64,000 bases of DNA, taken from the sequence record PX068454.1, one strand, 5' to 3'. Within the stretch, counting starts at the first letter, position 1. Every line of letters starts with the position of its first letter. Position numbers and translations under genes: made by a program. The notes beneath the pieces are model-generated. The model did no database searches. It was not told the DNA's origin and worked only from the letters and a program-made list of their open reading frames with translations. Positions 8,160-44,597 of the stretch are shown piece by piece. Origin of the DNA: a phage.

Positions 8160-8161
8160 CA

Positions 8162-8612: not shown

Positions 8613-8643
8613 AGAAATAAAAAGCCCCGCACAATGGCGGGGC
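8613..8643 (-). terminator. rho-independent terminator
   Basis: Hairpin GCCCCGCC-N-GCGGGGC followed on minus strand by TTTTTATTTCT. Confidence 0.55.
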
Positions 8644-8651
8644 GTTGGTTG

Positions 8652-9210: not shown

Positions 9211-9268
9211 TGTATTGATAAACTATCTTTATAGATGGCCCTGCTACCAGGACCACCGAAAAAACAGT

Positions 9269-9514
9269 TTATTTGACGATACCGACAAAACAGATCCCGC
9301 CTTCCCCTATATAGGCAATATCGGTAATTTTATAATTTGTCAAGATCCGCGTGTTCAGCTCATTAATAAAATCTGTCATCGCGTTGGTGTAGTTGTCTTC
9401 CGTGTCTAAGGCATAATCCCAGGTGTAAACCTTTTTACGTCCGAAGCCTTTTACCATGATCCGGGCGCTTTTGGTGTTGGTAGGGGCATAGTATTTGGTG
9501 ATTAGTGCTGCCAT
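9269..9514 (-). CDS. hypothetical protein (81 aa)
   Basis: ORF track. Confidence 0.5.
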   Translation of the reverse strand: MAALITKYYAPTNTKSARIMVKGFGRKKVYTWDYALDTEDNYTNAMTDFINELNTRILTNYKITDIAYIGEGGICFVGIVK

Positions 9515-9600
9515 GGTTTTAACTCCTCATTAGTTCAGTGTTAACAGTGTAAAGTTTACTTTATTGATGGCCCTGGAGTCAAGGCCATCTAAAAATAAAT

Positions 9601-9951
9601 TTACTCGTTTTCTTCCAGTTCTGCAAGCTCTTCTTTCACTTCTTCGAGCTCTGTCTGCAATTCCTGGTATTCTTCATCGTCCTCAATATCCAGGCTGTCG
9701 ATGTAGTCGCTAAATCCGCAGCGGTAAGCGATAGGATCTAGCTCTTTGAGGATACGCGACGGAAGAAAAGAAATGTTTCCGATCATAATTTCGCCGTAGA
9801 TCTCGTCTAACCATTCATCATAGTTTTCGTCGTACTTGTCCTCGTCGATTTCAAAGTTATCGATCTTGTCTTCAAGTTCTGCAATCTGTTTTTTCAGGGC
9901 GGCGATCTGCAGGGCTTTTTCTTCGGCGGTCATAGTGATGGAAGTATTCAT
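9601..9951 (-). CDS. acidic coiled-coil protein (116 aa)
   Basis: ORF track; highly acidic composition. Confidence 0.55.
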   Translation of the reverse strand: MNTSITMTAEEKALQIAALKKQIAELEDKIDNFEIDEDKYDENYDEWLDEIYGEIMIGNISFLPSRILKELDPIAYRCGFSDYIDSLDIEDDEEYQELQTELEEVKEELAELEENE

Positions 9952-10003
9952 AATGTTTTCTCCTTTTGGTGTTCTGGGAAGTTTTCCCGTTTATGTGCTT
10001 AGT

Positions 10004-10031
10004 ATTATACTGATTTAAGTTAGCTTGTCAA
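10004..10031 (-). promoter_or_regulatory. sigma70-type promoter TTGACA-16-TATAAT
   Basis: Consensus hexamers; followed by 5' UTR hairpin GGGAA-N-TTCCC at 9974-9989. Confidence 0.65.
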
Positions 10032-10226
10032 TTAAAAGTTTAAGAAAAATTTTGCGAAATCATTGGCGCTACTCATCAACATTTGCGCCAGGATGTAACC
10101 AATGATGCAAACGATAATAGTTACCTTTGTGTGCTGGCGTGTAGTGCTCATCTTCAAGCCTCCTTTTTAACTGGGATTAGTTTACTTTACTGATGGCCCT
10201 GGAGTCAAGGCCATCTAAAAATAAAC

Positions 10227-10622
10227 TCAATAAGTTTTTAGTACTTTCCCGTCCAATCTGTCAAGCTGGATCTCGATAGCTGCAGAAAACCTATTGTAAA
10301 CCACATCGCCCAAGGAGTCCAGCCAATCTATGACGTTATACACCTGCTCTTTATTCTTGCAAGTCCGGATCCGTTTCATTACGTAAGACGGATCAATATT
10401 AGCGCTCTCGTTGTTGTGGTCATGCTCCTGGCCTGCTGCATTAGTTATAGATTTTACAACCACCTGAAAAGGCTTTAAGGTGCCTTTTGCGTTCATCTCA
10501 CGCGCTTTTGCGGCGCGGTTGTTATATGTTACACAACGGCGGCAAATGTTGACCAAATGCATGTCAATAATTTTTTCATCGTTTGCCAGTTCGTTCATGA
10601 TGCGGCGTACGTTCTTATTCAT
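10227..10622 (-). CDS. hypothetical protein (131 aa)
   Basis: ORF track. Confidence 0.55.
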   Translation of the reverse strand: MNKNVRRIMNELANDEKIIDMHLVNICRRCVTYNNRAAKAREMNAKGTLKPFQVVVKSITNAAGQEHDHNNESANIDPSYVMKRIRTCKNKEQVYNVIDWLDSLGDVVYNRFSAAIEIQLDRLDGKVLKTY

Positions 10623-30805: not shown

Positions 30806-32788
30806 TTATTTGATGTTATTCTTTGTATCGATCAGTTCACGGTATTCAATCATAGCAGGAGTGTCCCAATATTTCAAGCCTACATGCTTCAAAAGCGGGT
30901 ATTTCTTTTCCAATCTTGCAATATAGGCCTTCCCGCATTTAACTCGGTTGGCGATTAAGATTTTGGCACGATGATTTAGCTCACTGTGCTTCCACGTGGT
31001 GTTACCTTCCCACTTGTGGAAATGTGGCCGATAATTTCCAAAATCTTGCATGGGAATAATTTTCCCTAATTGTCTATACAGGCTGTCATAAGAAGTCTCA
31101 TTTGCTGCACGGGTCAGTAAGAATTTCCAAGCATCCTCTTTCAACAGGTGCTCCACATTCTTCTCTGTAACATACTGGCAATCAGGATCAGTCCAAAGCA
31201 GACGAGATTCAGATACCAGATACAGATCTTCACCTTCAGGAATCTGAAGTGCCGCACGTACACGGTCATAATCTTGCTGGTAGATGTTACTCATCTGCCC
31301 CAGCCAACAACTTCCACGTTGGATATCACCCTCATAAGGGATGCAGTGTTTAATCTTCCGGAACTCTGCCTTAGTAATACGCTCACGGCGGAAGTAACCA
31401 TCCTTCTCAAGTTTTTTAACCCAATAGCCTGGCTCATAACGAGTTTTGGTTTCACCTTTCTTCGCAGGTCGGCGTGGAAGCTCCGATAACAATTTGACCG
31501 TATCTGCAAAGAACGGATGGTGTGCCGCCTCTTTAAACTCTTTCACCAGATCCGTGTTCCGGCAATAGAAAACGTTGCGTCCGGTGATCTCGCTTAAGTA
31601 GTTACACTTATTCCGGTTATATTTGCCGTCTCCGTCGTTAAATACAAGGTATACACCTCGTAAGAACTCCGACTTTCCGTAACGAGCATAGCCTATGCGG
31701 CCTTTATTTAAGCCGCCAGCGAAAATTTCACAATCGCCTAAGTCGCCAAGCCCTGTTTCTTCCCAACGGTTCCACATAAAGTTCTTGCCGAAGATGTGTC
31801 CGAACACTCCACTATTCTTCATCATTTCACGTGCTTCTGCGGAGGTTTTTGCCGTCTCCAGTTCTGCAACAACTTCTGCCCCGCGAAGACGTATACCTTC
31901 TTTGACAAATGCCTCCAGGCGATCCTGGAATCCACCGTCGTCATGGCCCTCTATGGTCCATTCACGCCCAGGGTTAATATTGCAATCCCCAATAGGAATT
32001 TCCACGCAGATTGCAGGGTAATCGGTCAATGTCTCCAGGAACTTGGAGCGGTAAGGTTGGTGACCCATCACAACACGGCTCTCATCAGAACTGGTATAAC
32101 CTTTCAGGATGGTCATTTTCCAGCCATCCTTCTCGTAATGATACTGTGCCTCAACCTTGTCACCTTCTAACATCTTACTGGTCATGGGATCGGTGACAGT
32201 GAACGGAAATTTTGCATAGCGCAGGCATGATGCAATAGCGGTGCGATATTTCAGAACATGCTCTTTCTTAACATGAAACTGAACTTTTACCCCGTTGTGC
32301 TCTTCAGTCTTCCGCTCACGGATCTTGGTGACATTTGGGATACCCTGGTCCAAGAACAATAGGTATGTGCTTTCCACACCGTTGTGCACACTGATTACAT
32401 CGAAAGTGTCCACCATGCTGAACGGGGCCTTTGAACCAACACCTTTATTGCCTACCAGAGCGTTGCTGTTGCGCTTGGTCGACTCACCGAGGTTCATGAA
32501 AGTGTTACGGACCATCTCTTCTGACATGCCTAATCCAACGTCCTGCACAAAGAAGTATGGTTCAAGGTCTGTAGGAGAGTGAATGATGATCGGTACATCA
32601 CCTCGTCCAGACTCAACATGTGAGTCCACAGCATTGAAGATCGGTTCACGGCAGCTTGCCAGTACCTTATCTTCATAAATCCCTTTGATGATTAGCCCAA
32701 AAGTCTCTTTGTTCAGAGAAATTGATCCCCTGGTTACCTCCATATTCCCAGTTAGCACCGCTTTAGTTTCATTGCTGTTTACAATCAT
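30806..32788 (-). CDS. rIIA: rIIA-like protein with N-terminal GHKL ATPase domain
   Basis: Bergerat motifs E..N..D (REPIFNAVD), DxGxGM (DVGLGMSEE), GxGxGSKxPF (GNKGVGSKAPF); N-terminus resembles T4 rIIA. Confidence 0.75.
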   Translation of the reverse strand: MIVNSNETKAVLTGNMEVTRGSISLNKETFGLIIKGIYEDKVLASCREPIFNAVDSHVESGRGDVPIIIHSPTDLEPYFFVQDVGLGMSEEMVRNTFMNLGESTKRNSNALVGNKGVGSKAPFSMVDTFDVISVHNGVESTYLLFLDQGIPNVTKIRERKTEEHNGVKVQFHVKKEHVLKYRTAIASCLRYAKFPFTVTDPMTSKMLEGDKVEAQYHYEKDGWKMTILKGYTSSDESRVVMGHQPYRSKFLETLTDYPAICVEIPIGDCNINPGREWTIEGHDDGGFQDRLEAFVKEGIRLRGAEVVAELETAKTSAEAREMMKNSGVFGHIFGKNFMWNRWEETGLGDLGDCEIFAGGLNKGRIGYARYGKSEFLRGVYLVFNDGDGKYNRNKCNYLSEITGRNVFYCRNTDLVKEFKEAAHHPFFADTVKLLSELPRRPAKKGETKTRYEPGYWVKKLEKDGYFRRERITKAEFRKIKHCIPYEGDIQRGSCWLGQMSNIYQQDYDRVRAALQIPEGEDLYLVSESRLLWTDPDCQYVTEKNVEHLLKEDAWKFLLTRAANETSYDSLYRQLGKIIPMQDFGNYRPHFHKWEGNTTWKHSELNHRAKILIANRVKCGKAYIARLEKKYPLLKHVGLKYWDTPAMIEYRELIDTKNNIK

Positions 32789-33285
32789 TTATTGCGCTCC
32801 TTGTAGTAGATATGGCTCCCGAATTGAGCTGTCCTCTGCATCTTTTTTGCCCATTTCGGTCGTACTTTTGTTGTATGGTAGTGTGTTGCTCCGCCTGTTA
32901 TATCCATAGCCATGTATGCAACATGGTTGTTATTATAGACCTTTAGAAGCATCTTTGCAAGACTTTTAGCGTGATCCCATGAATCTTTTTCTGTCACCTT
33001 AAAAGTTTTGCCGTGGTTTGTCCACGAAAACTGGTTAGGTTGGTAGACAATCTTTCTTATAGTGTCTGGGTATTTGGGGTGAGATTTCCTGTTTAGTGTG
33101 GCAAATCCGGATGCCAGCATACCCATCGTGCCATCCCCTCTAGCCTCCCTGTAGATATTGCATGCTAGAATGTTTTCCTTAGTATCCGACGGCTTGCAAG
33201 TGTGATATACTTTTTGTTTTGGTGCTGCAACAACAGGCAGCGATAAAAATGCGCTCAAAATAATAGCAAAGATTTTAATTTTCAC
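32785..33285 (-). CDS. secreted cell-wall hydrolase (SleB/CwlJ-like)
   Basis: Signal peptide MKIKIFAIILSAFLSLPVVAAP; motifs NIYREARGD and GMLASGFATLNR. Confidence 0.7.
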   Translation of the reverse strand: MKIKIFAIILSAFLSLPVVAAPKQKVYHTCKPSDTKENILACNIYREARGDGTMGMLASGFATLNRKSHPKYPDTIRKIVYQPNQFSWTNHGKTFKVTEKDSWDHAKSLAKMLLKVYNNNHVAYMAMDITGGATHYHTTKVRPKWAKKMQRTAQFGSHIYYKERNK

Positions 33286-33289
33286 AATA

Positions 33290-33322
33290 ACTCCAAATAG
33301 AAAATCCCCGCCGAAGCGGGGT
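33290..33322 (-). terminator. rho-independent terminator
   Basis: Hairpin CCCCGC-TTCG-GCGGGG followed by T-rich run; identical hairpin at 59767-59782. Confidence 0.5.
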
Positions 33323-33334
33323 GTGTCTTAGAAA

Positions 33335-33715
33335 TTAATCGTAGTGTGCCAAAATCTCTCCATCGTTGCAAGTCCCCTCTACGAAGTTGTGAAGATTCAT
33401 GCATTCATCTTGATAGAAGAATTTACCGCTTTTCAGCCGTAGACCAAACAACTCCGCATCTCCACGATGGCAAGCCTCTACAAGTTCATAGATTTCATAC
33501 GGTAATTCCCCATCGTCATGGAAGAACCCCGCTTTATCGTTGACATAGATGAAGAAATAGTCACTGCTGTCGCAAGCGTCCAGTATTTTAAACCAGATTT
33601 CATCCACATCTTTTTCTCGGATATCGATCACACAAGTGGAGCTGCATTCGTACTCCTTCTCCGGCTCCTCGGTCAATACCACCAAGTAGTTTCCCCGCTT
33701 ACCTACTTTAGCCAT
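33335..33715 (-). CDS. hypothetical protein (126 aa)
   Basis: ORF track. Confidence 0.55.
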   Translation of the reverse strand: MAKVGKRGNYLVVLTEEPEKEYECSSTCVIDIREKDVDEIWFKILDACDSSDYFFIYVNDKAGFFHDDGELPYEIYELVEACHRGDAELFGLRLKSGKFFYQDECMNLHNFVEGTCNDGEILAHYD

Positions 33716-33724
33716 ACAACCTCC

Positions 33725-34909
33725 TCAAGCTTTAGCTAAAATGGCGCTAAACTCTTCACCAAACTCTTTTACAATCTTCATCAGGTTTGGGTATGCTTTG
33801 ATCAGCTGAGCAACGATCTTGTCCCTGCCTTTACCAATAAGTAAGGCATTTCCTAAGGCGTTAGGTTTCATCATCGCCATAAAGACTGAGAATACAAAGT
33901 CTCGGTTCTCATCCTTGAAATTTTCCCAAAGGAAATCAAGGAAGTTTGCCACACAGCTGACGAGATCTTCGTCGGAGATACTTGCATTTTCCATCATATT
34001 ACGAATAGCGATACAACCTTCAGACCCCAGAATCCACAAGATGTCTGGCTGCTTAGGACCTACATATTCTTTGCAGCCTCCTGCCATAATCCGACCGATT
34101 TCTGGCAAGTTTCGTTTCTTGGTGTGGTAGGTCCAAATTTCTACCGCTGCAGTGTGACCAATGGCACCTTGTAGAAGGACACGGGCCATAGCGTCAGAAA
34201 TAATACCGCTGTCAAAATCGTGCAAGATGTCAGATGCAGCAACCCAAGAGCGCGGTGTAGCAAAAGATGGACAATTAATCTCAGCCATGGCCTCATAATT
34301 ATCGATGGCCGATGGGACTCTTTTCAGATATCCAATTACCGAGGAGTGCACCCCATTAAGGAATGCATAGTCCTCAATAAACACCTCTGCACTGCTTGTA
34401 ACTTCTACAATGATAAAGCGGTTAGCTAGAGGAGCTTCGAGTGCCGAAAGAACAGCACCGTCTGTAGCACGGTTACCTGCAGCTACAAAAACAGAGCCTT
34501 TAGGAAATGCATAGGTGCCGCACTTGTGGTCGAGCATAATTTGCATTGCAACCTTCTGCAGGTAGTTATCTGCATGAGTAAGCTCGTCTAGAAAGATAAT
34601 TCCGCTCCAGTCCGGATCTGCAGGCCAAAATTCTGGAATTGCAAACACTGTACGTGTAGTTCCATCTGCCTCCACAGGGATAGGCAGTCCAGATAAGTCA
34701 GCAGGATCTTTATCTGACAACCGCACGTCAACCAGGTTGTCATCTCGCTCACCGAACATATTATCAGCAATCTGCTTCATCACCTGGCTCTTCCCCACGC
34801 CCATCGGTCCTAAAATCAGGACAGATCGGTTATGACGCTGGGCAAATTGAACAATGGCTGGCAACTCGCGGACAGTGATTTGACCACTTTCGAATACGTT
34901 TCTCGACAT
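33725..34909 (-). CDS. MoxR-like AAA+ ATPase (CobS-like)
   Basis: Walker A GPMGVGKS, Walker B IIFLDEL; 394 aa. Confidence 0.75.
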   Translation of the reverse strand: MSRNVFESGQITVRELPAIVQFAQRHNRSVLILGPMGVGKSQVMKQIADNMFGERDDNLVDVRLSDKDPADLSGLPIPVEADGTTRTVFAIPEFWPADPDWSGIIFLDELTHADNYLQKVAMQIMLDHKCGTYAFPKGSVFVAAGNRATDGAVLSALEAPLANRFIIVEVTSSAEVFIEDYAFLNGVHSSVIGYLKRVPSAIDNYEAMAEINCPSFATPRSWVAASDILHDFDSGIISDAMARVLLQGAIGHTAAVEIWTYHTKKRNLPEIGRIMAGGCKEYVGPKQPDILWILGSEGCIAIRNMMENASISDEDLVSCVANFLDFLWENFKDENRDFVFSVFMAMMKPNALGNALLIGKGRDKIVAQLIKAYPNLMKIVKEFGEEFSAILAKA

Positions 34910-35178
34910 TAGTAAAAGTCCTCTACTTGTGTGTAAGTGTTTTCAAAGTTTTCCAAAACAGACATCACATCGGATCTGTCAATATCATACGCAACTCTCC
35001 AGCCATATGCAACCCTTTCTGCTGTTGCCTCTTCTGGCGCTAGTCGTCTGCTGGCATAAAAGAGTGTTGGAGTACACTTTCTTGCTTGCCCTCTAACTTT
35101 CCCATAATAATATCTGTGAATATCTTTGTCAAAATTTAATTCTTTTTCTGCACGAAGTTCGTACTGCTGGTATAACAT
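34909..35178 (-). CDS. hypothetical protein (89 aa)
   Basis: ORF track. Confidence 0.5.
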   Translation of the reverse strand: MLYQQYELRAEKELNFDKDIHRYYYGKVRGQARKCTPTLFYASRRLAPEEATAERVAYGWRVAYDIDRSDVMSVLENFENTYTQVEDFY

Positions 35179-35222
35179 CTCTACTGCTCCTTAAGCAGCA
35201 TCCTTGCTGCCATCCATACCCA

Positions 35223-35603
35223 CTAAAATGCAGTCCGAATCCAGACAAGGTTCTTATCCGCCCAATCATAGAGGCAAGTCATTGCACTATTGAATTGCTC
35301 ACACGGAGGATAATCTTCTTCCATCTTGCGCATAGCAGAGCCTTGTGGGTAAAGCTCCCGTGCTGCAAACCACGCGTCGTAGTCATCAACGGTATCGAAG
35401 TAGTATACAACATCCTCCAACTCAGGATCGAACTTTGAACTATCAGGATCCAGCTGTTCAGGGAACTTGGAGCGTAACTTGCCAGCCACAATACTTGCCA
35501 ACTCGCTAACATGCTTGTTGTCCCACTCTACCAGTTTCCCGTCTTCAGTTATGCGTCCTAACCACTGATCATGAAGGTCAACTGTTGTCTTCCACTGGGC
35601 CAT
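35223..35603 (-). CDS. hypothetical protein (126 aa)
   Basis: ORF track. Confidence 0.55.
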   Translation of the reverse strand: MAQWKTTVDLHDQWLGRITEDGKLVEWDNKHVSELASIVAGKLRSKFPEQLDPDSSKFDPELEDVVYYFDTVDDYDAWFAARELYPQGSAMRKMEEDYPPCEQFNSAMTCLYDWADKNLVWIRTAF

Positions 35604-35605
35604 TA

Positions 35606-35857
35606 TCAGTCTACCTCTTCTTCTCGTTGCAGTTCAAGATACCCATAGGTCTGGATATCTTCAAGGGTGTGGAACTCTCCATCTGCTGCTAAGGCACGGA
35701 CAACCTGGCATAGAGTTTTATAAGGTACTTTCTCCAAACCCAGATTCAGCGCAGGAAAAAACTTATCTAAGTCAACAAAATATACAAACTGTAGCTCACC
35801 AGTTTCAAAAGGCGTATCTTCGATAAACATCTTCTCGGCATTAGTCAAGATCTGCAC
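35606..35857 (-). CDS. hypothetical protein (83 aa)
   Basis: ORF track. Confidence 0.5.
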   Translation of the reverse strand: MQILTNAEKMFIEDTPFETGELQFVYFVDLDKFFPALNLGLEKVPYKTLCQVVRALAADGEFHTLEDIQTYGYLELQREEEVD

Positions 35858-35862
35858 TTTTA

Positions 35863-36219
35863 TTATTCTACCCCCTCTTCTTTTTCTTCAGCATTAGTTT
35901 CAGTGCTACCCCACTCTGGAGTTTCCACCTCGATAGTGAACTCACGCACTACACGGTAATTGCCCATGAAGCGCTCCACTTCTTCAAGGCTTATGGAGAG
36001 GCCATTGGCAACCAAATCTGCAGCACCCTTCTCTACCAGGTAGTCCAGATTGGCTTCCAAGGCTTCAGGCTCAAACCCTGTCAATGCAATCATATAACCT
36101 TCCCCTTCATCAAGGAGGGCAATACAGCCCAACTGATTTTCTTTAAAAAAGCAGTGACCATCACTATTGATTGGTTGCTCATTGCAGTAAATAGCTGCAC
36201 GATAAGTAACTTTAGACAT
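35863..36219 (-). CDS. hypothetical protein (118 aa)
   Basis: ORF track. Confidence 0.55.
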   Translation of the reverse strand: MSKVTYRAAIYCNEQPINSDGHCFFKENQLGCIALLDEGEGYMIALTGFEPEALEANLDYLVEKGAADLVANGLSISLEEVERFMGNYRVVREFTIEVETPEWGSTETNAEEKEEGVE

Positions 36220-36231
36220 TGGTAGGCCTCC

Positions 36232-36510
36232 TTAGGCAACTGTCATTTTACATTCTTGAAATTTTAGCACAAGACGGTGATTGTGTCTAGTGTCTAAAAA
36301 GATTTTTTCAACCATCAGGCACACGGTGTAACCGTCCATCTTGTTGACAACAAAATCCTCAGGGTGAGGGAGAATGTCCCCAGGATTGGGGAAACATAAC
36401 CCGCTCAAGAAGGCATCATCGGTGGTGGACCTGATGGATTTCCACACACTATCTGCCTGGACACTCTCACCAACATAATATACACTACCACATGCCTTCA
36501 TCATAGTCAA
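36232..36510 (-). CDS. hypothetical protein (92 aa)
   Basis: ORF track. Confidence 0.5.
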   Translation of the reverse strand: MTMMKACGSVYYVGESVQADSVWKSIRSTTDDAFLSGLCFPNPGDILPHPEDFVVNKMDGYTVCLMVEKIFLDTRHNHRLVLKFQECKMTVA

Positions 36511-37406
36511 ATCTCCGCGTAAATTAAACTGGAATCAGTATACTTCTTTAGTGGGTAAATATCCTGTCCATAGATGCCGTCATTAAACACCTCATCTACC
36601 CAAAGGCTACACTTATATCCCATCATCTCTAAAACACCCATCTCTTCTTCGGTAAACTTATCACCGCTCTTGCAAGATGTCAACACCTCATTCTGTACTC
36701 TTGCTACCTCGAAGCGATTATTGGCAATATCGCTATTAGCGATCAAATACTCACCCAAAGGGTGTGCGGCATTAAAGATGCACAGTGGACGGTTGACGTA
36801 ATAGTCTCCAGGTGTATAAAAATTATTGAGGTCTTTCACTAGAACATTCTTATCAGTCACTTCATTTATAACATCATGCATATCGCACATCTTTATATGT
36901 TTGAGGATTCCATCCCCCATCACAAAATAAAAACTTGCTGAAACACTTTCGGCATAGATCTTACTAGATCCGTTGTAGTTGTATTTTACTCGGATGCTAA
37001 CGGGGGTTTTTCCTGTCGCGTTAGCCATCATCCAAAGAAATGGCAGCTCATACTTCTCCTCTGAGGAAACAAAAGGTGAAGTAGCCAGAGATCGAAAACC
37101 TCCAGAGAAGTTGAAAGTTACAGAACCGCTCCGGCGGTATGATACTGCGTATTCTACTTTTATATCAACGTATCCGTTGGAGTAAGTATGCCCTCCATTA
37201 TCAAGGTATGTCCACTTATCAGACCCGGATACCAACCTCCGCTCAATTACCTTCATCACCATAGGAATTAGCGGATTAGTACAAACCGATCTTGAAGTAG
37301 CTTTATCATCCAAAGCCTCGTAAATTGCAGAAAGGATATCTCCAGCTGAAAGATTGGTTGTTATATCCTGTTGCCACCTGGTGCTAAAACTGTTAAGATT
37401 TGCCAT
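36507..37406 (-). CDS. hypothetical protein (299 aa), first gene of leftward operon
   Basis: ORF track; promoter 37447-37475 upstream. Confidence 0.6.
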   Translation of the reverse strand: MANLNSFSTRWQQDITTNLSAGDILSAIYEALDDKATSRSVCTNPLIPMVMKVIERRLVSGSDKWTYLDNGGHTYSNGYVDIKVEYAVSYRRSGSVTFNFSGGFRSLATSPFVSSEEKYELPFLWMMANATGKTPVSIRVKYNYNGSSKIYAESVSASFYFVMGDGILKHIKMCDMHDVINEVTDKNVLVKDLNNFYTPGDYYVNRPLCIFNAAHPLGEYLIANSDIANNRFEVARVQNEVLTSCKSGDKFTEEEMGVLEMMGYKCSLWVDEVFNDGIYGQDIYPLKKYTDSSLIYAEI

Positions 37407-37446
37407 GAATAAGTGCTCCTATGTTAGTTTTCTTTCGAATGGGTGC

Positions 37447-37475
37447 ACTATATCGGAGATTTAGAGTAAAGTCAA
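37447..37475 (-). promoter_or_regulatory. sigma70-type promoter TTGACT-17-TATAGT (leftward)
   Basis: Divergent partner of plus-strand promoter 37489-37517. Confidence 0.55.
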
Positions 37476-37488
37476 CACGTTTTTGAGG

Positions 37489-37517
37489 TTGACATCTCCC
37501 CAGGCTCTTGGTAAGAT
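37489..37517 (+). promoter_or_regulatory. sigma70-type promoter TTGACA-17-TAAGAT (rightward)
   Basis: Hexamers read directly; drives plus-strand block. Confidence 0.6.
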
Positions 37518-37548
37518 TTCTCCACCCACAGAGAACAAGAGACAACTC

Positions 37549-38538
37549 ATGAATCTTGAAAAATATTATACACCAGAAGAGTTAGAGCGCTTGCTCAAAA
37601 AATACAGACGCAAACAGAATAACGCACGGAAACGGGATATAGAGTTCAACCTGTCATGGGAAGAATATCTCCTATTTGGTAAAAAACTTTTAGGAGAGGG
37701 AGTATGCGACTATACCCTTATACCTTTCGACATGCACACAGATGAAAACGGACTGGGAAATCCTTTCTACCCATCTCTGGAGCGGATAGATGATGAAGGT
37801 CCTTATGCGGTTGATAATTGTTGTGTGGTGGGATTGAGATGCAACTCCCTAAAGGACTGCCTGGTAGATAAAAAGACCGCAGTCTTGATTAAAGACAAAA
37901 CTGATCGAAAAATTGTCCAGCAGATGATGCTCCACCTGAGCGAAGAGCGTATGGAGAAATTGAAAGGTGATTACACTTTTGAAGATTTCATCTTGCAATA
38001 TGGAACGGAAGAGGATAAACTGGCACTCTTTGACGAAGAATGGGAGGAAGATATGTCACCAATGCAGGATTTTAAAAACTTCATGGCTAATCGTGGAGCC
38101 AACAAGCACATTTCTGACATTGTAAACGAGCCTGTAGTAGAGGAGATTGAAGAGATGACGCAACAGGCTTACGAAGAGGAAAAAGAGCCTCAAGGGGTCG
38201 AAGAAGAGCTTACAGAAGAGGTTCCTGCACTGCCTGACGATGTTGAGATTGCCAAAGCTTACACTTTCTATTGCCAGACGTTCTACGATGCAGGTATGAA
38301 AGTTGATCTGTCCTTCAGCCAGTTTAAGAGCACATACATTCGAAAATGTTGTGCTTTAACTGGTGAGCGTCTCGGGGCCGGACTTAAACCACTATTAGTT
38401 ACCGACTGGAACAAAGGTTTCACCAAAGGTAACTTCATGGTAGTATCTCCAATCATGGAAAAGGCTATGACAGACCTTATGAAGACCACTCGCATGACAA
38501 TGACCGAGTTGGCTGGTATTTTCAAGCACGTTAAATAA
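37549..38538 (+). CDS. protein with two HNH_3-like endonuclease-type modules
   Basis: Likely ATG at 37549; motifs SLERIDDEGPYAVDNCCVVGLRCNSLK and a second related C-terminal module. Confidence 0.5.
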   Translation: MNLEKYYTPEELERLLKKYRRKQNNARKRDIEFNLSWEEYLLFGKKLLGEGVCDYTLIPFDMHTDENGLGNPFYPSLERIDDEGPYAVDNCCVVGLRCNSLKDCLVDKKTAVLIKDKTDRKIVQQMMLHLSEERMEKLKGDYTFEDFILQYGTEEDKLALFDEEWEEDMSPMQDFKNFMANRGANKHISDIVNEPVVEEIEEMTQQAYEEEKEPQGVEEELTEEVPALPDDVEIAKAYTFYCQTFYDAGMKVDLSFSQFKSTYIRKCCALTGERLGAGLKPLLVTDWNKGFTKGNFMVVSPIMEKAMTDLMKTTRMTMTELAGIFKHVK

Positions 38539-38571
38539 TGACAGGGGCCATTGGCCCCTTCTGGAGTTTTA

Positions 38572-40032
38572 ATGGATAGCAGAAGTTCAGAAATCATTAC
38601 CGCACAAAAAGATGATGCCTTGCGAATGCTGCAGGCCGCTCGCATGTACCTTCTTGAAAAGCTGCCGTTTTATGGCACACTGTTGTCAGGGTTGCAGTTC
38701 GTAGAAAACCACACATGGTGCTCCACTATGGCAACAGACCATAAACGCATCTACTACAGCCCTGAGTTCATTATGGGGTTGGCAGATGAGCGTAAAACCA
38801 TTCTTAAAGCATCTCTGACTGACAAGCAGTTTGAGATGGCTGAGGTTTTCTATTCCCCAAAATCTGTGAAAGAGGTGGCCTTTCTTCTGTCACATGAGGT
38901 GGGGCATATTATCTGTGATCATCTGGTCCGTGGTAAAAGCTTTGAGCCGGAACTGTTCAATATTGCTTGTGATCACGTTATCAACACAGGTCTTGTGGTT
39001 GACTTTAGCAAGCCTCCTTGTGTTTTCTTCCCGAAGGGGAAAAGCACTGAGTTCGTAAAAGGTAAGCCTTTTGGCTTCTTAGCTAGTTGCTACTGTGACA
39101 TGAAGTTTCATGGATGGATTGCTGAGAACGTCTATGCAGTTCTTGATAAACAAAGAGATCAGAATGGCGGTAAAAGTAAGAACGGTAAAGGTGAGAACTC
39201 CCAAGGAGATAAACGACAAACCGATGATCACATGAGGGGGAACGGTGGCACCAGTGATGATCTTGGAAAGGCTATGGGGTATGATCAGCCGCAACCAGTA
39301 ATCAGTCAATCTGATAAAGATCAGGCCATGCAGGACTCTGGTGACATGTTGGAAGCAGCAATGCAAGCTTCAGGAGGTCGTTGCCCTGAGGCGGTGCGCG
39401 AGTTTGTCAAAAACAAAGGCAAGCCTGTAATCAACTATATAGATATTATTAAGCAACGTATGTTGTCTAAACGAAAGGCCGAGCTAACCTACAGAAAACC
39501 TGGTCGCCGATCTGGGTCTTTGACCACCACAATGCGAAAAGTTGGAGCTATAAACAAGAATCAACACGTTATTGTTCCTGGTCGTAATCCGGAAAACACC
39601 ATAGATATTGTAGTGGCTTTGGACGTTTCTGGATCGATCTCGCAAAGAACTTTAAAGAAAATGTTCAATGAGATCACCGGGTTGTGCAATTTGTATAAAG
39701 AGTTTAAGGTTACGATGTTCTGTTGGTCAACCGAGGTTGGAGAGGTTAAAGTATACACTCGCGGTAACATCGATGAGATGATCAACTATGAGGTCCACTC
39801 AACATGGGGCACAACAGCCGCCTGCGTGTTCGAGTATCTGGATGCTAACATACCGAATGCAAAAGATGTCATCGTCCTTACCGACCTCTACTTTGAGCAT
39901 AACTTTGAACAAAAGGCTGTTGACAACAAGTGGAAAAAGTACGATACTTTATGGGTTCTCACCGAAGGGTATAATAAAAATTATATCCCGAGCTTTGGGA
40001 AAACTGTGGAATTAATCGAGTATGCTAAGTAA
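38572..40032 (+). CDS. vWA-domain protein with N-terminal HExxH metallopeptidase-like domain (CobT-like)
   Basis: HEVGH zinc-binding motif; MIDAS motif DVSGSIS; ATG at 38572 after hairpin. Confidence 0.7.
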   Translation: MDSRSSEIITAQKDDALRMLQAARMYLLEKLPFYGTLLSGLQFVENHTWCSTMATDHKRIYYSPEFIMGLADERKTILKASLTDKQFEMAEVFYSPKSVKEVAFLLSHEVGHIICDHLVRGKSFEPELFNIACDHVINTGLVVDFSKPPCVFFPKGKSTEFVKGKPFGFLASCYCDMKFHGWIAENVYAVLDKQRDQNGGKSKNGKGENSQGDKRQTDDHMRGNGGTSDDLGKAMGYDQPQPVISQSDKDQAMQDSGDMLEAAMQASGGRCPEAVREFVKNKGKPVINYIDIIKQRMLSKRKAELTYRKPGRRSGSLTTTMRKVGAINKNQHVIVPGRNPENTIDIVVALDVSGSISQRTLKKMFNEITGLCNLYKEFKVTMFCWSTEVGEVKVYTRGNIDEMINYEVHSTWGTTAACVFEYLDANIPNAKDVIVLTDLYFEHNFEQKAVDNKWKKYDTLWVLTEGYNKNYIPSFGKTVELIEYAK

Positions 40033-40047
40033 GAGAGGATAGTATTT

Positions 40048-40305
40048 ATGGCAACAGAGGTAGTAATTAAAGCTGAACGCCCAGTTAAAAAAGCTATCAA
40101 CACGTTCCCTGTAGGAACCATTGTGAGCATGATTACAGAGTCAGGCCGTGTATCTACACTGCTAATCGTGAAATCTGCATGCTCATCTTGTGTGTGGGCA
40201 TACGATCTTGACGAGAAAGAACTGAAAGATTTTGTCGGGGAGCTGAAAGCAACAGAGCTTGACGCTCGTATCGAAGTATTTGGTGAAACTATGGAGGAAG
40301 AGTAA
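40048..40305 (+). CDS. small protein, tandem paralog 1 (85 aa)
   Basis: Shares FxxG(T/E)(I/V)V pattern with the next two ORFs. Confidence 0.5.
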   Translation: MATEVVIKAERPVKKAINTFPVGTIVSMITESGRVSTLLIVKSACSSCVWAYDLDEKELKDFVGELKATELDARIEVFGETMEEE

Positions 40306-40568
40306 TGACTACAAAAATCACCATTGCAGAACCAAAAGCTAACACGCAACCTATCGAAAAGTTTAAATGCGGTGAGGTGGTAACATTCACACCAGATAAT
40401 GAAGATGCCAAGATTTTTGCCATGGTTACAGCCGAGTGGATGTGTGACAATACCACACAGGTGCTGCGTTTTGACACCTATCTTACAGATGAAATCAGGA
40501 ACGACAAGATCGTGACTGGTGTGGATACTGAGATTATTTTCTACAAGAGCTTTTTAGAGGGTTTCTGA
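40305..40568 (+). CDS. small protein, tandem paralog 2 (87 aa)
   Basis: ORF track; shared pattern. Confidence 0.5.
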   Translation: MTTKITIAEPKANTQPIEKFKCGEVVTFTPDNEDAKIFAMVTAEWMCDNTTQVLRFDTYLTDEIRNDKIVTGVDTEIIFYKSFLEGF

Positions 40569-40569
40569 T

Positions 40570-40803
40570 ATGGCAAAAATTCGTAAATTATCCAGCAATC
40601 AGGTTGTGAAAGACTTTGAATCTGGAGAGATCTTGTATGTCCGTGATGCAGATGATGAATGTGAAGATCTTGTTATGCTGGTAGGGTACGCTGAAGACGG
40701 ATGCATCCAGGCTGTTTTTCTTGAAACAGCGATGGTGCACTGGATAGAGCTGGACCTGAAAGCACGAAAACCTAAAGCAGAAATCATTATTTACGAAGAT
40801 TAA
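40570..40803 (+). CDS. small protein, tandem paralog 3 (77 aa)
   Basis: ORF track; shared pattern. Confidence 0.5.
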   Translation: MAKIRKLSSNQVVKDFESGEILYVRDADDECEDLVMLVGYAEDGCIQAVFLETAMVHWIELDLKARKPKAEIIIYED

Positions 40804-40819
40804 CAAGAAGGAGAGAGCC

Positions 40820-41269
40820 GTGTTGAGCAAACGTGAATGCGACAGCATTAGCCTGAATTCTTATAAAAAACAATGGTTTGGGGTAGAAGTTTGCCGACTA
40901 CGGCTGGGCTCCTACTTGAACTTCGTCCATTATGAGAGTGACAGTCGTATCGTTTCTTATGAAGTGTTCTACACTAAGAATACATTCGAGCTGAGACGTA
41001 AGGTGGATGGCGGGAGATCTGCCGCCCAGAATAATTGGGAAACTATTCTGCCTCCAGATGTTATAGGAAGTCCCCTGAATGTATCTGAAGATGAAAATCT
41101 TATGGTTCATGCTATGATGGGACTTGACAGCTTAGAGCTGGCGATCTATGATATGTCCATCGAAGCAGTTAAGTTGGACTACATCGAAAACACTTTAGAG
41201 GAAGGTATCAAGAAGTTTCTCGGTGAGAAATTGAAAGCCCACTTTCATAAGGAGCTATATCTGTTATGA
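40820..41269 (+). CDS. hypothetical protein (149 aa)
   Basis: ORF track. Confidence 0.55.
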   Translation: MLSKRECDSISLNSYKKQWFGVEVCRLRLGSYLNFVHYESDSRIVSYEVFYTKNTFELRRKVDGGRSAAQNNWETILPPDVIGSPLNVSEDENLMVHAMMGLDSLELAIYDMSIEAVKLDYIENTLEEGIKKFLGEKLKAHFHKELYLL

Positions 41270-41511
41270 AGACCCGTAAAGAACGTAACAAGATTTTACC
41301 TGGCGCTCTCGAACACATGATGAAGTGCAGATCTATCTGGCACTCTGCCAAGGAGGGCCAGCATGTGGTCGTGGTTAGTGATAATGTCAACCCGTTCGGT
41401 GATTATGTCACCATGATGACTCCATACATCCGCGACGGTGTTGTGGAAGTGGTTCCTTATAACGGTCTGCATGAGAGGCATTTTGAGAGCACTTTGCTAG
41501 TGGAGCTATAA
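41266..41511 (+). CDS. hypothetical protein (81 aa)
   Basis: ORF track. Confidence 0.5.
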   Translation: MKTRKERNKILPGALEHMMKCRSIWHSAKEGQHVVVVSDNVNPFGDYVTMMTPYIRDGVVEVVPYNGLHERHFESTLLVEL

Positions 41512-41513
41512 TT

Positions 41514-41834
41514 ATGGCGGTCAATGTGGCTTACAACACAGGAAAGCTTGACAGAGACATTGGGTGTCTTGTCCTTTCAGATACAGAGGAGTATTGGGGT
41601 TATGGGTTGCTGTCAGACCCACACCCGAGCAACCTTGTATCAACGGTGCTCTATCGCTACGACCCTGTACCAACGGTGCACGACAAAGATATTCACGACC
41701 TTCGGATCAAGTGTCTGGAAGATCTTCTGAACAATGGCTGCAACGATCTGCGGGTAGCCAAGGAGAAGCTTACAAACATTCACAAAGAGGAAGTGATGAG
41801 CACCCTCAGTAAGAGGTCAGTGCACAAAAGATGA
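41514..41834 (+). CDS. hypothetical protein (106 aa)
   Basis: ORF track. Confidence 0.5.
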   Translation: MAVNVAYNTGKLDRDIGCLVLSDTEEYWGYGLLSDPHPSNLVSTVLYRYDPVPTVHDKDIHDLRIKCLEDLLNNGCNDLRVAKEKLTNIHKEEVMSTLSKRSVHKR

Positions 41835-42079
41835 TGTTAAACTTTGCGATGGGTATCTACATGGATGGGTATAAGGGAGGGGATCCGATCCTCAAGCTTC
41901 GCTGCCCAACACTGTGGGAAAGAGTGGTTGACAGTAAAGACGGTACTGCCCTGCTAGAACTCCACACTGCAGGTTGGATTTGGCGGTATGTAGACGGATA
42001 CCCTCTGTGGGCATGTGGGCCTGGGGAATTTGTTGACAGACCTAGCGCGGTAGTGGATTTGCTATTGCAGTTTGAATAA
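41831..42079 (+). CDS. hypothetical protein (82 aa)
   Basis: ORF track. Confidence 0.5.
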   Translation: MMLNFAMGIYMDGYKGGDPILKLRCPTLWERVVDSKDGTALLELHTAGWIWRYVDGYPLWACGPGEFVDRPSAVVDLLLQFE

Positions 42080-42135
42080 AAGGTGAGTTATAAAGCATTC
42101 ATACACCTATCAACAATACAACAAGAGAGACTGAG

Positions 42136-42411
42136 ATGACGAAAGAAGAAGCTGACGTATTAGACTTTGCACTGGAGGCTACGCAGGAGGCTTTGGTGTT
42201 AGCTTGGAAAATGAACCAGCGTGCTGCAGAATGCAACCGCCGCATCAATGAGATCCTGGGTATGTCTATGTATGATTTCACCATGCATGCTGGAGAGATT
42301 CCTGAATTAACTGCTGAGATGAATGATCTTGACAATAAAATTAATATCATTCTGAAGACAGCAGAAACAACTCACCAAACCGCCCGTAAATTTATCAACG
42401 AGAAGGTGTGA
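42136..42411 (+). CDS. hypothetical protein (91 aa)
   Basis: ORF track. Confidence 0.5.
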   Translation: MTKEEADVLDFALEATQEALVLAWKMNQRAAECNRRINEILGMSMYDFTMHAGEIPELTAEMNDLDNKINIILKTAETTHQTARKFINEKV

Positions 42412-42413
42412 AT

Positions 42414-42878
42414 ATGGACTACAGCTACTGCGGAGAAGAAGTACCTTTTAACTACAGCAATCTCACCACGAGTAATCCATATGAGACTCGTCACGGCACA
42501 CACATCATTGCTATTGACTTTGATGGAACGTTTAATGCGAGCCCTTTCATCTTCTCCCGCCTTATTAAGGACCTGAAGAAGGAAGGGTGGACAGTCTATC
42601 TTGTGACTTCCCGATTTATCACTCAAGACAACGTGGACATCGAATACTGGCGCAAGGAGCTTGATGTTGGTGTGTTTTATACTGGGGGTGTTCAGAAGGC
42701 AGCCTATCTGGCGCAGTTTGATATCTACCCAGATATCTGGATTGATGATTCTCCGGCATGTATTCCGGCTAAGAATCAGTTAGAGTTTGCAATGAAGGAG
42801 ATCGAGTATAAGTCTGAGGCTAAGCGGAACGGATGGCCCTTTATTATTGAAGATTACCCAGATCCTGAACCGGAGTAA
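42414..42878 (+). CDS. HAD-superfamily hydrolase-like protein (putative nucleotidase or phosphatase)
   Basis: HAD motif I IAIDFDGT; ATG at 42414 after RBS GAGAAGG. Confidence 0.5.
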   Translation: MDYSYCGEEVPFNYSNLTTSNPYETRHGTHIIAIDFDGTFNASPFIFSRLIKDLKKEGWTVYLVTSRFITQDNVDIEYWRKELDVGVFYTGGVQKAAYLAQFDIYPDIWIDDSPACIPAKNQLEFAMKEIEYKSEAKRNGWPFIIEDYPDPEPE

Positions 42879-42883
42879 GAGCC

Positions 42884-43054
42884 ATGAGGCGAAGATATTA
42901 TTACCTGATGTGGAAGTTATATCAAAATGCTGCCAAAGCCTATCATACCATGTTTGGCAATGACGATCACTACATCATGTTACATCTCACCGCTATTAAG
43001 CATCACAATGAGTGGATTCATGCAATCGTGGCAGGTGATAAAGACTTTAAGTAA
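42884..43054 (+). CDS. hypothetical protein (56 aa, not in ORF track)
   Basis: RBS GGAG then ATG; translation MRRRYYYLMWKLYQNAAKAYHTMFGNDDHYIMLHLTAIKHHNEWIHAIVAGDKDFK. Confidence 0.3.
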   Translation: MRRRYYYLMWKLYQNAAKAYHTMFGNDDHYIMLHLTAIKHHNEWIHAIVAGDKDFK

Positions 43055-43180
43055 AATATGCCTTAAAACGCAACAGGAGTCCCTGTAGCGCACTTAACTC
43101 ACCGCAGGCATAAGATTGCATTGCTAGGTAGTTTTGTGCATCATTTTAGTTACAGAGCTTTCTAGACGGAGACTGATTAA

Positions 43181-43561
43181 ATGTGCAAGTGTAAATCCTA
43201 TAATTGGAAAGTGAAAGGTGCCAAGCATCCAAATGTTATCGTTGATGTGCCTAAAAAACTTCGAGACGGCAAAAAACGTGTGTGCCTTGATAAGTGCATG
43301 GCTAAGCCTATCATGAGTCTATGGGCGGCAGGATTGAAAACTCTAAACTGCTGCTGTGGTCATAACAAAGATGTTCCAAGCATCATTATCCCAGAGGATG
43401 CAGACCCTAAAGCTTATGCCAAAATATTGACCCGCTACCCCAGCACCTTTCTGATCGGAAAATGGTGTCACGATGAACTTCAATGGTGGATAGCGTACGG
43501 CAGTGTAGGTGCTGCTTTTGGCTTCCCAGCTTTGTCAGAGCGCTACGTCAAAGCATCATAA
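43181..43561 (+). CDS. Cys-rich hypothetical protein (126 aa)
   Basis: ORF track. Confidence 0.5.
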   Translation: MCKCKSYNWKVKGAKHPNVIVDVPKKLRDGKKRVCLDKCMAKPIMSLWAAGLKTLNCCCGHNKDVPSIIIPEDADPKAYAKILTRYPSTFLIGKWCHDELQWWIAYGSVGAAFGFPALSERYVKAS

Positions 43562-43666
43562 TCTGTTTTAAGGCCTCAAACGAGGCCTGTGCCTTCAATA
43601 ACTCTACCCTCTCTTGTGATTACACTCACCTTTCAAAAAACTTCCCCAAAACGCTTAAAAATGTTG

Positions 43667-43696
43667 TTGACAGCAAACACCCCAGTTTGCTATTCT
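43667..43696 (+). promoter_or_regulatory. sigma70-type promoter TTGACA-18-TATTCT
   Basis: Hexamers read directly upstream of CDS 43730-44059. Confidence 0.45.
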
Positions 43697-43729
43697 CATT
43701 ATCACAGATACAGAACGGAGTAACAAAAA

Positions 43730-44059
43730 ATGGCACATGTGAATATTAAACTACATTATCATGGTAGAAAACCAAAATATCCAATGCATAAAGTATTTTG
43801 GGGGTTGCATATCCAAGAAAAAGAAGGTATTGGTTACTGGTTTTGTGACCACGATAGACAATGGCATACCCATGAAGAAGTGTGCACTATGATGGAGCAG
43901 GGTATTAAATTTAATTTCTCAAACTATGATCATGGTGTTAATTGCATTCGAAAATTGAAACGATTTCTTAGAAAGAATCCTGAACTTAAAGGGCTTACAT
44001 TCTTTATGTCTCATAACTACATGGGGTATAGCGCTACTGTAACTGCAAGGATTAAGTAA
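43730..44059 (+). CDS. hypothetical protein (109 aa)
   Basis: ORF track. Confidence 0.5.
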   Translation: MAHVNIKLHYHGRKPKYPMHKVFWGLHIQEKEGIGYWFCDHDRQWHTHEEVCTMMEQGIKFNFSNYDHGVNCIRKLKRFLRKNPELKGLTFFMSHNYMGYSATVTARIK

Positions 44060-44060
44060 T

Positions 44061-44279
44061 ATGAGCAAAGTAAAATTTGTTAAATTTAAAAATCCTAACG
44101 GAATAACAGCCCTTATGATGGGTGTACACTTTACACCGGGCAAAGAGTATGAGGCAGATGTATACAATGGGATAGATGGTAAAGTTGGGATAGGTGTGTG
44201 GACAAACCGTGGAGAAAGATACTTTATCAAGGATATGGATGCTCACTGGGGTATTTGGGAAGTTGTTGGAGATCTGTGA
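44061..44279 (+). CDS. hypothetical protein (72 aa)
   Basis: ORF track. Confidence 0.5.
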   Translation: MSKVKFVKFKNPNGITALMMGVHFTPGKEYEADVYNGIDGKVGIGVWTNRGERYFIKDMDAHWGIWEVVGDL

Positions 44280-44348
44280 TGATGAAATGAAATACTGTTT
44301 CTTCGGCAATATGTAATATAGATTGGTTAAATATGGAGACTGATAGAG

Positions 44349-44549
44349 ATGGCTGATTTTTGTAAAGACTGTTCTGAAGAGTTGTTTGGTTTTGACTGCA
44401 AAGATTTGGAAGGTCTGATCACTGAGGATCAGTGGAAGGAAGGCTATGCAGCACCTGTTATTTGTGAAGGTTGTGGCTATACCTATGTTGACCATAAAGG
44501 TAAGCGCGTCAAGCCGTCTGAAGATGGGGCATGTTGGGAGTATTACTAA
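44349..44549 (+). CDS. Cys-rich zinc-ribbon-like protein (66 aa)
   Basis: CKDC and CEGCG motifs. Confidence 0.5.
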   Translation: MADFCKDCSEELFGFDCKDLEGLITEDQWKEGYAAPVICEGCGYTYVDHKGKRVKPSEDGACWEYY

Positions 44550-44560
44550 CTATAAAAAGA

Positions 44561-44590
44561 AAGGGGCCATTTGGCCCCCTTTTTTATCTA
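44561..44590. terminator. bidirectional rho-independent terminator between convergent blocks
   Basis: Hairpin GGGGCC-ATTT-GGCCCC flanked by A-run upstream and T-run downstream. Confidence 0.7.
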
Positions 44591-44597
44591 CTCCTTG

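Follow-up and report, generated by a model that had tools for sequence, protein, structure and literature searches.

A conserved phage gene pair encoding a MoxR-class ATPase and a putative zincin-vWA peptidase, split onto opposite strands in rV5-type phages

We describe here a pair of genes in a 64,000-nucleotide stretch of phage DNA (sequence record PX068454.1; this whole stretch is referred to below as the window). One gene (33725 to 34909, minus strand) encodes a MoxR-class AAA+ ATPase, and the other (38572 to 40032, plus strand) encodes a protein in which a putative zincin metallopeptidase domain is joined to a von Willebrand factor A (vWA) domain; we call the latter the zincin-vWA protein. 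The phage is a Vequintavirus, that is, an rV5/FV3-like coliphage, with a genome of ~136 kb and 98% identity to phage S127 BCL3, and positions 33000 to 41000 share 93 to 98% nucleotide identity with 122 phage genomes in the databases, nearly all of them Escherichia Vequintavirus (rV5, FV3, S127 BCL3). A preliminary description, made from the nucleotide sequence alone, had placed the two coding sequences ~3.6 kb apart on opposite strands and had quoted four motifs from them (GPMGVGKS, IIFLDEL, HEVGH, and DVSGSIS). Both open reading frames (ORFs) lie where it put them and coincide exactly with the GenBank coding sequences of near-identical phages, the measured gap is 3,662 bp, and the codons of all four motifs fall at the positions claimed. 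In those relatives, the ATPase gene is labeled “MoxR ATPase” and its partner “VWA-like domain-containing protein,” “metal-dependent peptidase,” or “putative metallopeptidase.” The gene identities at this locus are already in the public annotation; what is new is the split arrangement within a known module.

The ATPase, a homologue of phage N4 gp24, is 394 residues long and consists of an AAA+ core (residues ~1 to 180) followed by a family-specific helical C-terminal region (residues ~185 to 394) that is kept within the family. In an alignment of 46 sequences, G37, G39, K40, and S41 of Walker A (GPMGVGKS, residues 34 to 41; 34787 to 34810, minus strand) and L107, D108, and E109 of Walker B (IIFLDE, residues 104 to 109; 34583 to 34600, minus strand) are invariant, as are N146, R147, N163, R164, P219, and R220. 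By their likeness to MoxR motifs, residues of the latter group would provide sensor 1 (N146/R147), sensor 2 (R220 of “ATPR”), and the arginine finger, with R164 lying in “PLANRF”; these positions, encoded between 34250 and 34474 on the minus strand, were verified.

Assigning this protein to a class requires some care, given that the window sequence falls under every Pfam AAA gathering score (AAA_5 reaches 16.9 bits against a threshold of 22, and AAA_3 is unlisted). The ATPase has thousands of homologues, however, and those that are 31 to 36% identical over ~85% of its length carry both AAA_3 and AAA_5, the Pfam families of MoxR and dynein-related proteins. A profile built from the 46-sequence alignment also matches midasin in the PDB (E value of 9e-11), and because of these two observations we regard the protein as a divergent branch of the MoxR group rather than as a nonmember. 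The closest solved folds are those of CbbQ and NorQ, with only ~220 residues aligning to CbbQ. In the structural model, a beta-hairpin (E75-81/E84-90) follows strand 2, ahead of the strand that carries Walker B, and a small hairpin precedes the sensor-1 strand; as modeled, these hairpins fit the helix-2-insert/pre-sensor-1 clade, which includes MoxR. Less sensitive comparisons returned little: NCBIfam gave only P-loop-level matches, PADLOC gave P-loop-level matches (E value of ~1e-3) to DpdH and mad8, and a single-sequence PDB search gave only Walker-A-level matches to Clp proteins, so that profiles were needed. The MoxR-like AAA+ assignment made in the preliminary description thus agrees with the homologues, the profile search, and the fold, whereas its fuller wording, “MoxR/CobS-like,” is less precise in the second half than CbbQ/NorQ-like.

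The partner protein, a homologue of N4 gp25, has 486 residues and a clear two-domain architecture. Pfam assigns DUF2201_N (PF13203, “putative metallopeptidase”; E value of 1.4e-28, 100.7 bits against a cutoff of 23.2) followed by DUF2201 (PF09967, “VWA-like”; E value of 3.2e-11, 43.9 bits against a cutoff of 26.4), two domains that all 38 aligned family members have, and the protein belongs to phrog_1314 (E value of 9e-123). The candidate zinc site, HEVGHIICDH (HExxHxxxxH, residues 108 to 117), is encoded at 38893 to 38922 on the plus strand, with HEVGH itself at 38893 to 38907, and is followed by D134 and N138 (38959 to 38985), which are invariant in the alignment. In the AlphaFold2 model (mean predicted local distance difference test score of 83.5), HEVGH lies within a helix spanning residues 99 to 114. 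The vWA domain (residues ~340 to 486; 39589 to 40029) has the Rossmann-like vWA fold and a complete MIDAS (metal ion-dependent adhesion site), with D351-x-S353-x-S355 (DVSGS) at 39622 to 39636, T414 at 39811 to 39813, and D438 at 39883 to 39885, all verified.

Conservation of these residues was counted in the best 150 representatives, each drawn from a different 50%-identity cluster. The zinc-site residues are kept in 149 (H108), 145 (E109), 149 (H112), 148 (H117), and 150 (D134) of them and the MIDAS residues in 149 (D351), 150 (S353), 150 (S355), 147 (T414), and 149 (D438); H117 and D134 are the candidates for the third zinc ligand. Conservation at this level (145 to 150 of 150) argues for selection on the peptidase site as well as on the MIDAS site. 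The preliminary description had called an HExxH domain and a vWA domain with an intact MIDAS, allowing that the motifs might turn out not to be conserved; both calls stand, and both motifs are strongly kept. Beyond the motifs, a profile of the zincin part gives weak PDB matches to the minigluzincin MJ1213 and to the M48 peptidases HtpX and BepA (E values of 0.008 to 0.16), and Pfam finds weak Peptidase_M48 matches in 15 of the 38 members and SprT-like matches in 3. The fold matches of the vWA part include NorD, and 22 of the 38 members give weak VWA_CoxE matches; structures 6l1q, 9qh4, 9qh6, and 6qta are among the fold matches of the two proteins. NCBIfam and PADLOC, including its vWA-MoxR conflict systems, returned no match for the zincin-vWA protein, and neither did a single-sequence PDB search; here too a profile was needed.

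Two side observations concern this family. First, a metagenomic representative (P0213, 794 residues) carries a Hint plus LAGLIDADG intein directly after HEVLH (…GHEVLH|CFPAG…HN|CVYEH…), which, as read from its sequence, is inside the predicted peptidase active site; inteins typically insert into functionally critical motifs. Second, both phrog_1314 and phrog_3118, the family of the Srd-like protein encoded at 37549 to 38538 of the window, are labeled “HNH endonuclease” in PHROGs, and the label has spread to RefSeq, N4 gp25 included, while some GenBank records call the zincin-vWA protein an “anti-sigma factor.” An HNH domain was undetected in both the zincin-vWA and the Srd-like proteins.

To what extent do the two genes travel together? 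We counted 91 zincin-vWA loci, the window included. Eighty are viral-contig loci retrieved with the zincin-vWA profile; the set includes the GenBank phages YP-6, BP9, POP15, N4, and phAPEC6, a short Logan contig (L003), the P0068 contigs (L004 to L006), contigs L092, L093, and L094, a bacterial chromosome (L087), and two records (L088 and L089) of one 578-kb phage, and the bacterial context covers two loci that were looked up. The ATPase is present at 88 of the 91 loci, and at the three loci without it the sequence breaks off a short way (within ~300 nt) upstream of the vWA gene; contigs L030, L051, and L092 begin within ~300 nt upstream of that gene. The pair is adjacent in 71 relatives: in 70, the ATPase gene lies directly upstream of the vWA gene on the same strand, with a gap of 4 to 1,776 bp (median of ~100 bp), and in one, the short contig L092, the two genes are still neighbors on a single strand but in the reverse order. 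The divergent split, with the genes 3.6 to 5.2 kb apart, occurs only at 17 rV5-type loci, the window among them, where the rV5-type clade is defined by an identity of 39% or more between the zincin-vWA protein of the locus and that of the window. At all loci outside this clade, the pair is codirectional and adjacent, and the related genus Certrevirus retains the adjacent order (POP15 gp132/gp133); on a Certrevirus-like contig, a SleB-like hydrolase gene and a Dda-like helicase gene lie upstream on the opposite strand. Because the split layout is confined to the rV5-type clade, we take it to be derived, and the simplest history suggested by these arrangements would be an inversion of the ATPase gene across the divergent promoter region in an rV5-type ancestor. 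The preliminary description had the layout right; the arrangement is, however, a lineage-specific rearrangement and not a design feature of the system.

The two genes have also diverged in parallel. Pairwise identities of the two proteins correlate across 69 nonredundant loci (Pearson coefficient of 0.95 and Spearman coefficient of 0.86, both inflated by shared phylogeny), a correlation that excludes independent replacement of one partner. Relative to loci L001 and L002, the ratio of nonsynonymous to synonymous substitution rates (dN/dS) is 0.016 to 0.030 for the ATPase and 0.031 to 0.038 for the zincin-vWA protein (with dS of 0.28 to 0.36 for the latter); a value of 0.26 for the zincin-vWA protein against L007 comes from just 10 nucleotide differences. 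As judged from these comparisons, both genes are under strong purifying selection after the split. Among the loci examined, no third partner gene is conserved across lineages, and none is common to these loci and the window; the other recurring neighbors of the pair come from one related group of aquatic phages. The preliminary description had inferred a partnership and had proposed synteny and co-occurrence across related phages as a check on it. Run on the 91 loci, that check supports the partnership well at the level of sequence, through the presence of the ATPase wherever the contig is not cut off, the adjacency outside the rV5-type clade, and the parallel divergence. We are highly confident that the two genes constitute one conserved module whose halves act together.

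That the halves instead became independent in rV5-type phages after the split, sharing an ancestry but having lost the partnership, is very improbable: the genes do lie on opposite strands in separate transcription units, 3.6 to 5.2 kb apart, at all 17 rV5-type loci, and the ATPase has gained a lineage-specific and possibly coupled upstream ORF, but both genes are kept at every rV5-type locus examined, dN/dS is ~0.02 to 0.04 for both, their divergence from relatives matches (0.73/0.63, 0.50/0.50, 0.35/0.35, and 0.24/0.23), the ATPase and MIDAS motifs are all intact, and one divergent promoter region is common to both units.

The module is very widespread. A HMMER search with the zincin-vWA profile over 1.84 billion representatives of 50%-identity clusters gave 34,030 matches at an E value of ≤1e-3 and 15,500 at ≤1e-30. 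By tblastn against 50,697 phage records, the zincin-vWA protein is found in 618 and the ATPase in 813, in the same clades: Vequintavirinae, many N4-like Schitoviridae, ~350-kb jumbo phages (121Q, PBECO4, phAPEC6, and K64-1), and ~285-kb Pseudomonas phages. Outside these clades, matches are to one gene only: the zincin-vWA gene in phage G, Atu_ph07, and Aeromonas phages and the ATPase gene in cyanophage S-TIM5. The pair is also present on one bacterial chromosome, in surroundings free of phage genes.

Members of the module have been described before under other names. The 14 core genes of N4-like phages include N4 gp24, entered there as “unknown,” and gp25, entered as “vWFA domain”; both are middle transcripts (PMC4193335), and they are also covered in PMC2784036 and PMC7650795. 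The original N4 record lists gp24 as “ATPase” together with gp25 and notes the similarity of both to two Streptomyces coelicolor proteins. A MoxR-vWA pair with an N-terminal metallopeptidase was described in 2021 for jumbo phages of group 2.2 by Iyer, Anand, Burroughs, and Aravind, who proposed that it functions in virion assembly and peptidolytic processing (PMC7824862). In phAPEC6, the adjacent genes are annotated “MoxR ATPase” (gp265c) and “N4 gp25-like protein” (gp264c). Our literature search found no functional study for DUF2201, COG3864, or sll7028/sll7029 and no paper tying MoxR to rV5 or Vequintavirus; published CRISPRi-ART phage screens include no rV5-type phage and do not cover N4 genome-wide.

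When during infection might the pair act? Two sigma-70-like promoter matches lie back to back between the genes: TTGACT-17-TATAGT (10/12; 37475 to 37447, minus strand) faces the leftward unit, at the end of which lie the ATPase, hydrolase, and rII genes, and an extended −10 site, TTGACA-17-TG-TAAGAT (10/12; 37489 to 37517, plus strand), faces the Srd-like and zincin-vWA genes. The preliminary description had reported this divergent pair, and our scan recovers it at the same coordinates (37447 to 37517). Promoter-like sites are mildly enriched in the region (22, versus 15.2 ± 4.0 in shuffles), and the divergent pair consists of consensus matches only; bidirectional promoters are reported at this region in the rV5 paper. 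A longer ORF that begins with TTG contains the plus-strand promoter, and the Srd-like gene therefore probably starts at the codon chosen in GenBank, the ATG at 37549. Genes around the pair encode an Srd-like anti-sigma protein, an rIIA protein (phrog_612, HATPase_c), a SleB-like hydrolase, and a Dda/PIF1-like helicase. Elsewhere among phages, the pair is found with genes for RNA polymerase, helicase, DNA polymerase, 5′-3′ exonuclease, and thymidylate synthase, and in the 578-kb phage (L088/L089, ~60 to 10600) it is clustered with genes for ClpX, ribosomal protein S21, Hsp20, ClpS, and ClpP, a proteostasis cluster; the ATPase of that phage carries a ~100-residue insertion between strand 2 and Walker B. 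Taken together, the sigma-70-like promoters, the neighbors, the middle expression of the N4 genes, and the placement among replication genes suggest a nonstructural role early or midway in infection.

Several further features of the region are recorded here as observations in their own right. Directly upstream of the ATPase gene lies an 89-residue ORF (34909 to 35178, minus strand; phrog_13164, E value of 7e-60) whose stop codon overlaps the ATPase start (TAATG), an overlap from which the two are possibly translationally coupled. This ORF is present only in rV5-type phages and is not among the gene families common to the loci, and it may or may not belong to the module. In PHROG and some GenBank records it is named “ATPase” or “MoxR ATPase” without domain support; we considered it as part of the ATPase and dropped the idea, given its lineage restriction and the lack of a domain match in Pfam or NCBIfam. 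The best sigma-70-like match in the region, TTGACA-17-TATTAT (11/12; 35104 to 35132, minus strand), falls inside it, ~190 nt upstream of the ATPase start. On the other side, a perfect GC-rich hairpin (AGGGGCC-ATT-GGCCCCT, 38544 to 38560) separates the stop codon of the Srd-like gene from the GGAG/ATG of the zincin-vWA gene; it scores as a terminator on the minus strand only, the plus-strand T-run being interrupted, and could attenuate or stabilize the transcript.

Farther from the pair, a SleB/CwlJ-type cell wall hydrolase with a hydrophobic, signal-like N terminus (32785 to 33285, minus strand; Pfam Hydrolase_2, E value of 2e-19) is encoded beside rIIA in the early-looking leftward unit, remote from the rV5 lysis gene gp89. 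The 299-residue ORF at 36507 to 37406 (minus strand) is commonly annotated “putative alpha 1-3 fucosyltransferase” but lacks any Pfam match at an E value of ≤0.01 and belongs to phrog_12338, a family of unknown function, and the annotation looks unsupported. Across positions ~36000 to 46000, the GC skew turns from negative to positive at ~37 to 38 kb, in agreement with the coding-strand switch at the divergent promoter region, and turns back at ~45 to 46 kb. Finally, 16 records named “Campylobacter phage” (A140, A141, A142, A13b, A147, etc.), 15 of which give Campylobacter jejuni as the host, are ~93% identical over the full 8 kb to E. coli Vequintavirus, and their host attribution looks doubtful.

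How might such a pair work? CbbQ-CbbO, NorQ-NorD, and midasin each couple a MoxR-class ring to a single vWA/MIDAS module; this module binds to an acidic residue on the client, which is remodeled or extracted through ATP hydrolysis. By analogy, we posit that the phage ATPase would assemble into a hexameric ring on which the vWA domain of its partner would dock, with the MIDAS metal holding a specific target protein by one of its acidic residues. ATP hydrolysis would then pull on or remodel the target, and the N-terminal HExxH zincin would cleave the segment thus exposed, so that the net function would resemble that of an FtsH-like ATP-dependent protease made of two polypeptides with a built-in adaptor. 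In this model, the ancestral order would be the ATPase gene immediately upstream of the zincin-vWA gene; the ATPase gene would have flipped past the divergent promoter region in the rV5-type lineage, and both genes would still be driven from one early-looking control region. A target-specific, remodeling-coupled protease is the economical reading because the adaptor chain itself carries a zincin with conserved catalytic residues. We consider it reasonably probable that the split genes encode a two-part module, a MoxR-class ATPase and a zincin-vWA adaptor-peptidase, that remodels or clips its target early or midway in infection; for the narrower proposition, drawn by analogy, that it performs ATP-driven proteolysis of a specific target outside morphogenesis, our confidence is slightly lower, at even or somewhat better.

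Several points weigh against this proposal. The characterized MoxR-vWA systems (CbbQO, NorQD, and RavA-ViaA) remodel their clients or load cofactors without proteolysis. The zincin fold rests on the motifs and on the weak M48/minigluzincin matches, the fold searches having given vWA matches only; the PDB holds no structure for any DUF2201 protein, and the whole architecture is found in no solved structure. For this phage, the timing is deduced from where the genes lie and from promoter consensus matches rather than from transcript data, and the literature search found no experiment on any member of the zincin-vWA/ATPase family. A homologue of the ATPase in a jumbo phage, phAPEC6 gp265c, was moreover detected in a virion preparation, which points to a role in assembly (PMC7247149).

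An assembly role is the published proposal for the jumbo phages, made by analogy with p618/p892 of Acidianus two-tailed virus (PMC7824862). In such a scheme, the pair would act as a virion assembly chaperone and maturation peptidase, folding or assembling tail or head parts and trimming structural proteins. The mass spectrometry of purified phAPEC6 virions recovered gp265c with 6 peptides and 19% coverage (PMC7247149). However, the same list also holds thymidylate synthase (gp259c), a single-stranded DNA-binding protein, and the neighbors gp262c, gp267c, and gp268c. The presence of thymidylate synthase and the single-stranded DNA-binding protein makes carryover of abundant nonstructural proteins likely, and the list would reflect either such carryover or the packaging of early proteins as a block. 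The zincin-vWA homologue gp264c is absent from the examined portion of the list, and the main text of the rV5 virion proteome lists neither protein. The gene context points the same way: the genes lie in early/middle, replication, and takeover neighborhoods, outside morphogenesis modules, and the fact that a bacterial chromosome also carries the pair, away from any phage genes, argues that the module is not intrinsically a virion assembly device. We judge an assembly role unlikely.

Less probable still, in our estimation, is that the pair matures a metal cofactor or a complex without proteolysis, the HExxH domain being only a metal-binding or docking module; the models would be NorQ-NorD (iron insertion), CoxD-CoxE, CbbQ-CbbO, and the CobS-CobT and BchI-BchD chelatases. 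The CbbQ- and NorQ-like fold of the ATPase and the NorD and VWA_CoxE matches of its partner described above are consistent with such a role, as are the metal-dependent enzymes of nucleotide metabolism that the phage encodes, according to the rV5 paper. Against it, the catalytic Glu of HExxH is kept in 145 of the 150 diverse members together with both His residues, the signature of an active peptidase and not of a domain that only holds metal; a zincin domain is absent from all of the cofactor-loading systems just named, and no candidate client gene was found conserved beside the pair.

Returning to the adaptor-guided protease, what might its target be? We speculate, with considerable reserve, that this two-piece ATP-dependent protease, deployed early or midway in infection, cuts or dismantles one conserved host protein or complex, either for takeover of the cell or to disarm a defense. 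Such a reading would span N4-like podophages, rV5-like myophages, ~350-kb jumbo phages, and large aquatic phages and, if true, would explain what two core genes of the Schitoviridae, long classed as “unknown,” do. The window instance itself is ordinary and already annotated; the interest lies in the function of a very widespread phage module. Once the split rV5-type genes are connected with N4 gp24/gp25 and with the jumbo-phage pair, three E. coli phage systems amenable to genetics become available for addressing that function; the connection also corrects the widespread misannotation of these families as “HNH endonuclease” or “anti-sigma factor.”

The nearest well-known relatives are the N4 proteins, which match the window pair with an hhalign probability of 100 (E values of 4.7e-41 for gp24 and 2.8e-53 for gp25); N4 gp25 shares the HExxH and MIDAS motifs, and rII genes lie near the pair in both genomes. 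The N4 genes are adjacent and codirectional with a 167-bp gap, in contrast to the divergent genes 3,662 bp apart in the window, and the window proteins are longer (394 versus 352 residues for the ATPase and 486 versus 380 for the zincin-vWA protein, which has extra acidic and glycine-rich linkers modeled at low confidence). The jumbo-phage pair has an identical domain architecture, with homologues in 121Q, PBECO4, phAPEC6, phage G, and Atu_ph07; its description is limited to jumbo phages (PMC7824862), whereas the window phage has a genome of ~136 kb and a split pair, and the assembly and processing role proposed there is disfavored by gene context in our analysis. Acidianus two-tailed virus likewise combines a viral MoxR protein (p618) with a vWA partner (p892), and this is the only viral MoxR-vWA pair with experimental data (cited in PMC7824862); that analogous pair, however, has no peptidase domain, belongs to an archaeal virus, and functions in extracellular tail growth.

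Among cellular systems, CbbQ-CbbO and NorQ-NorD resemble the window pair in that an ATPase and a MIDAS-bearing partner are encoded alongside each other, but their vWA partners have no peptidase domain, their known output is remodeling or cofactor insertion, and their ATPases do not have the additional ~200-residue helical C-terminal region of the window protein. FtsH and Yme1 share with the window pair the combination of an AAA+ motor and an HExxH zincin, a functional analogy and not a homology of architecture. In FtsH, both modules lie in one membrane-anchored chain, with a classical-clade AAA domain and an M41 peptidase, whereas the window pair has a MoxR-class motor, a zincin closest to M48 peptidases and minigluzincins, and a vWA adaptor, distributed over two soluble polypeptides.

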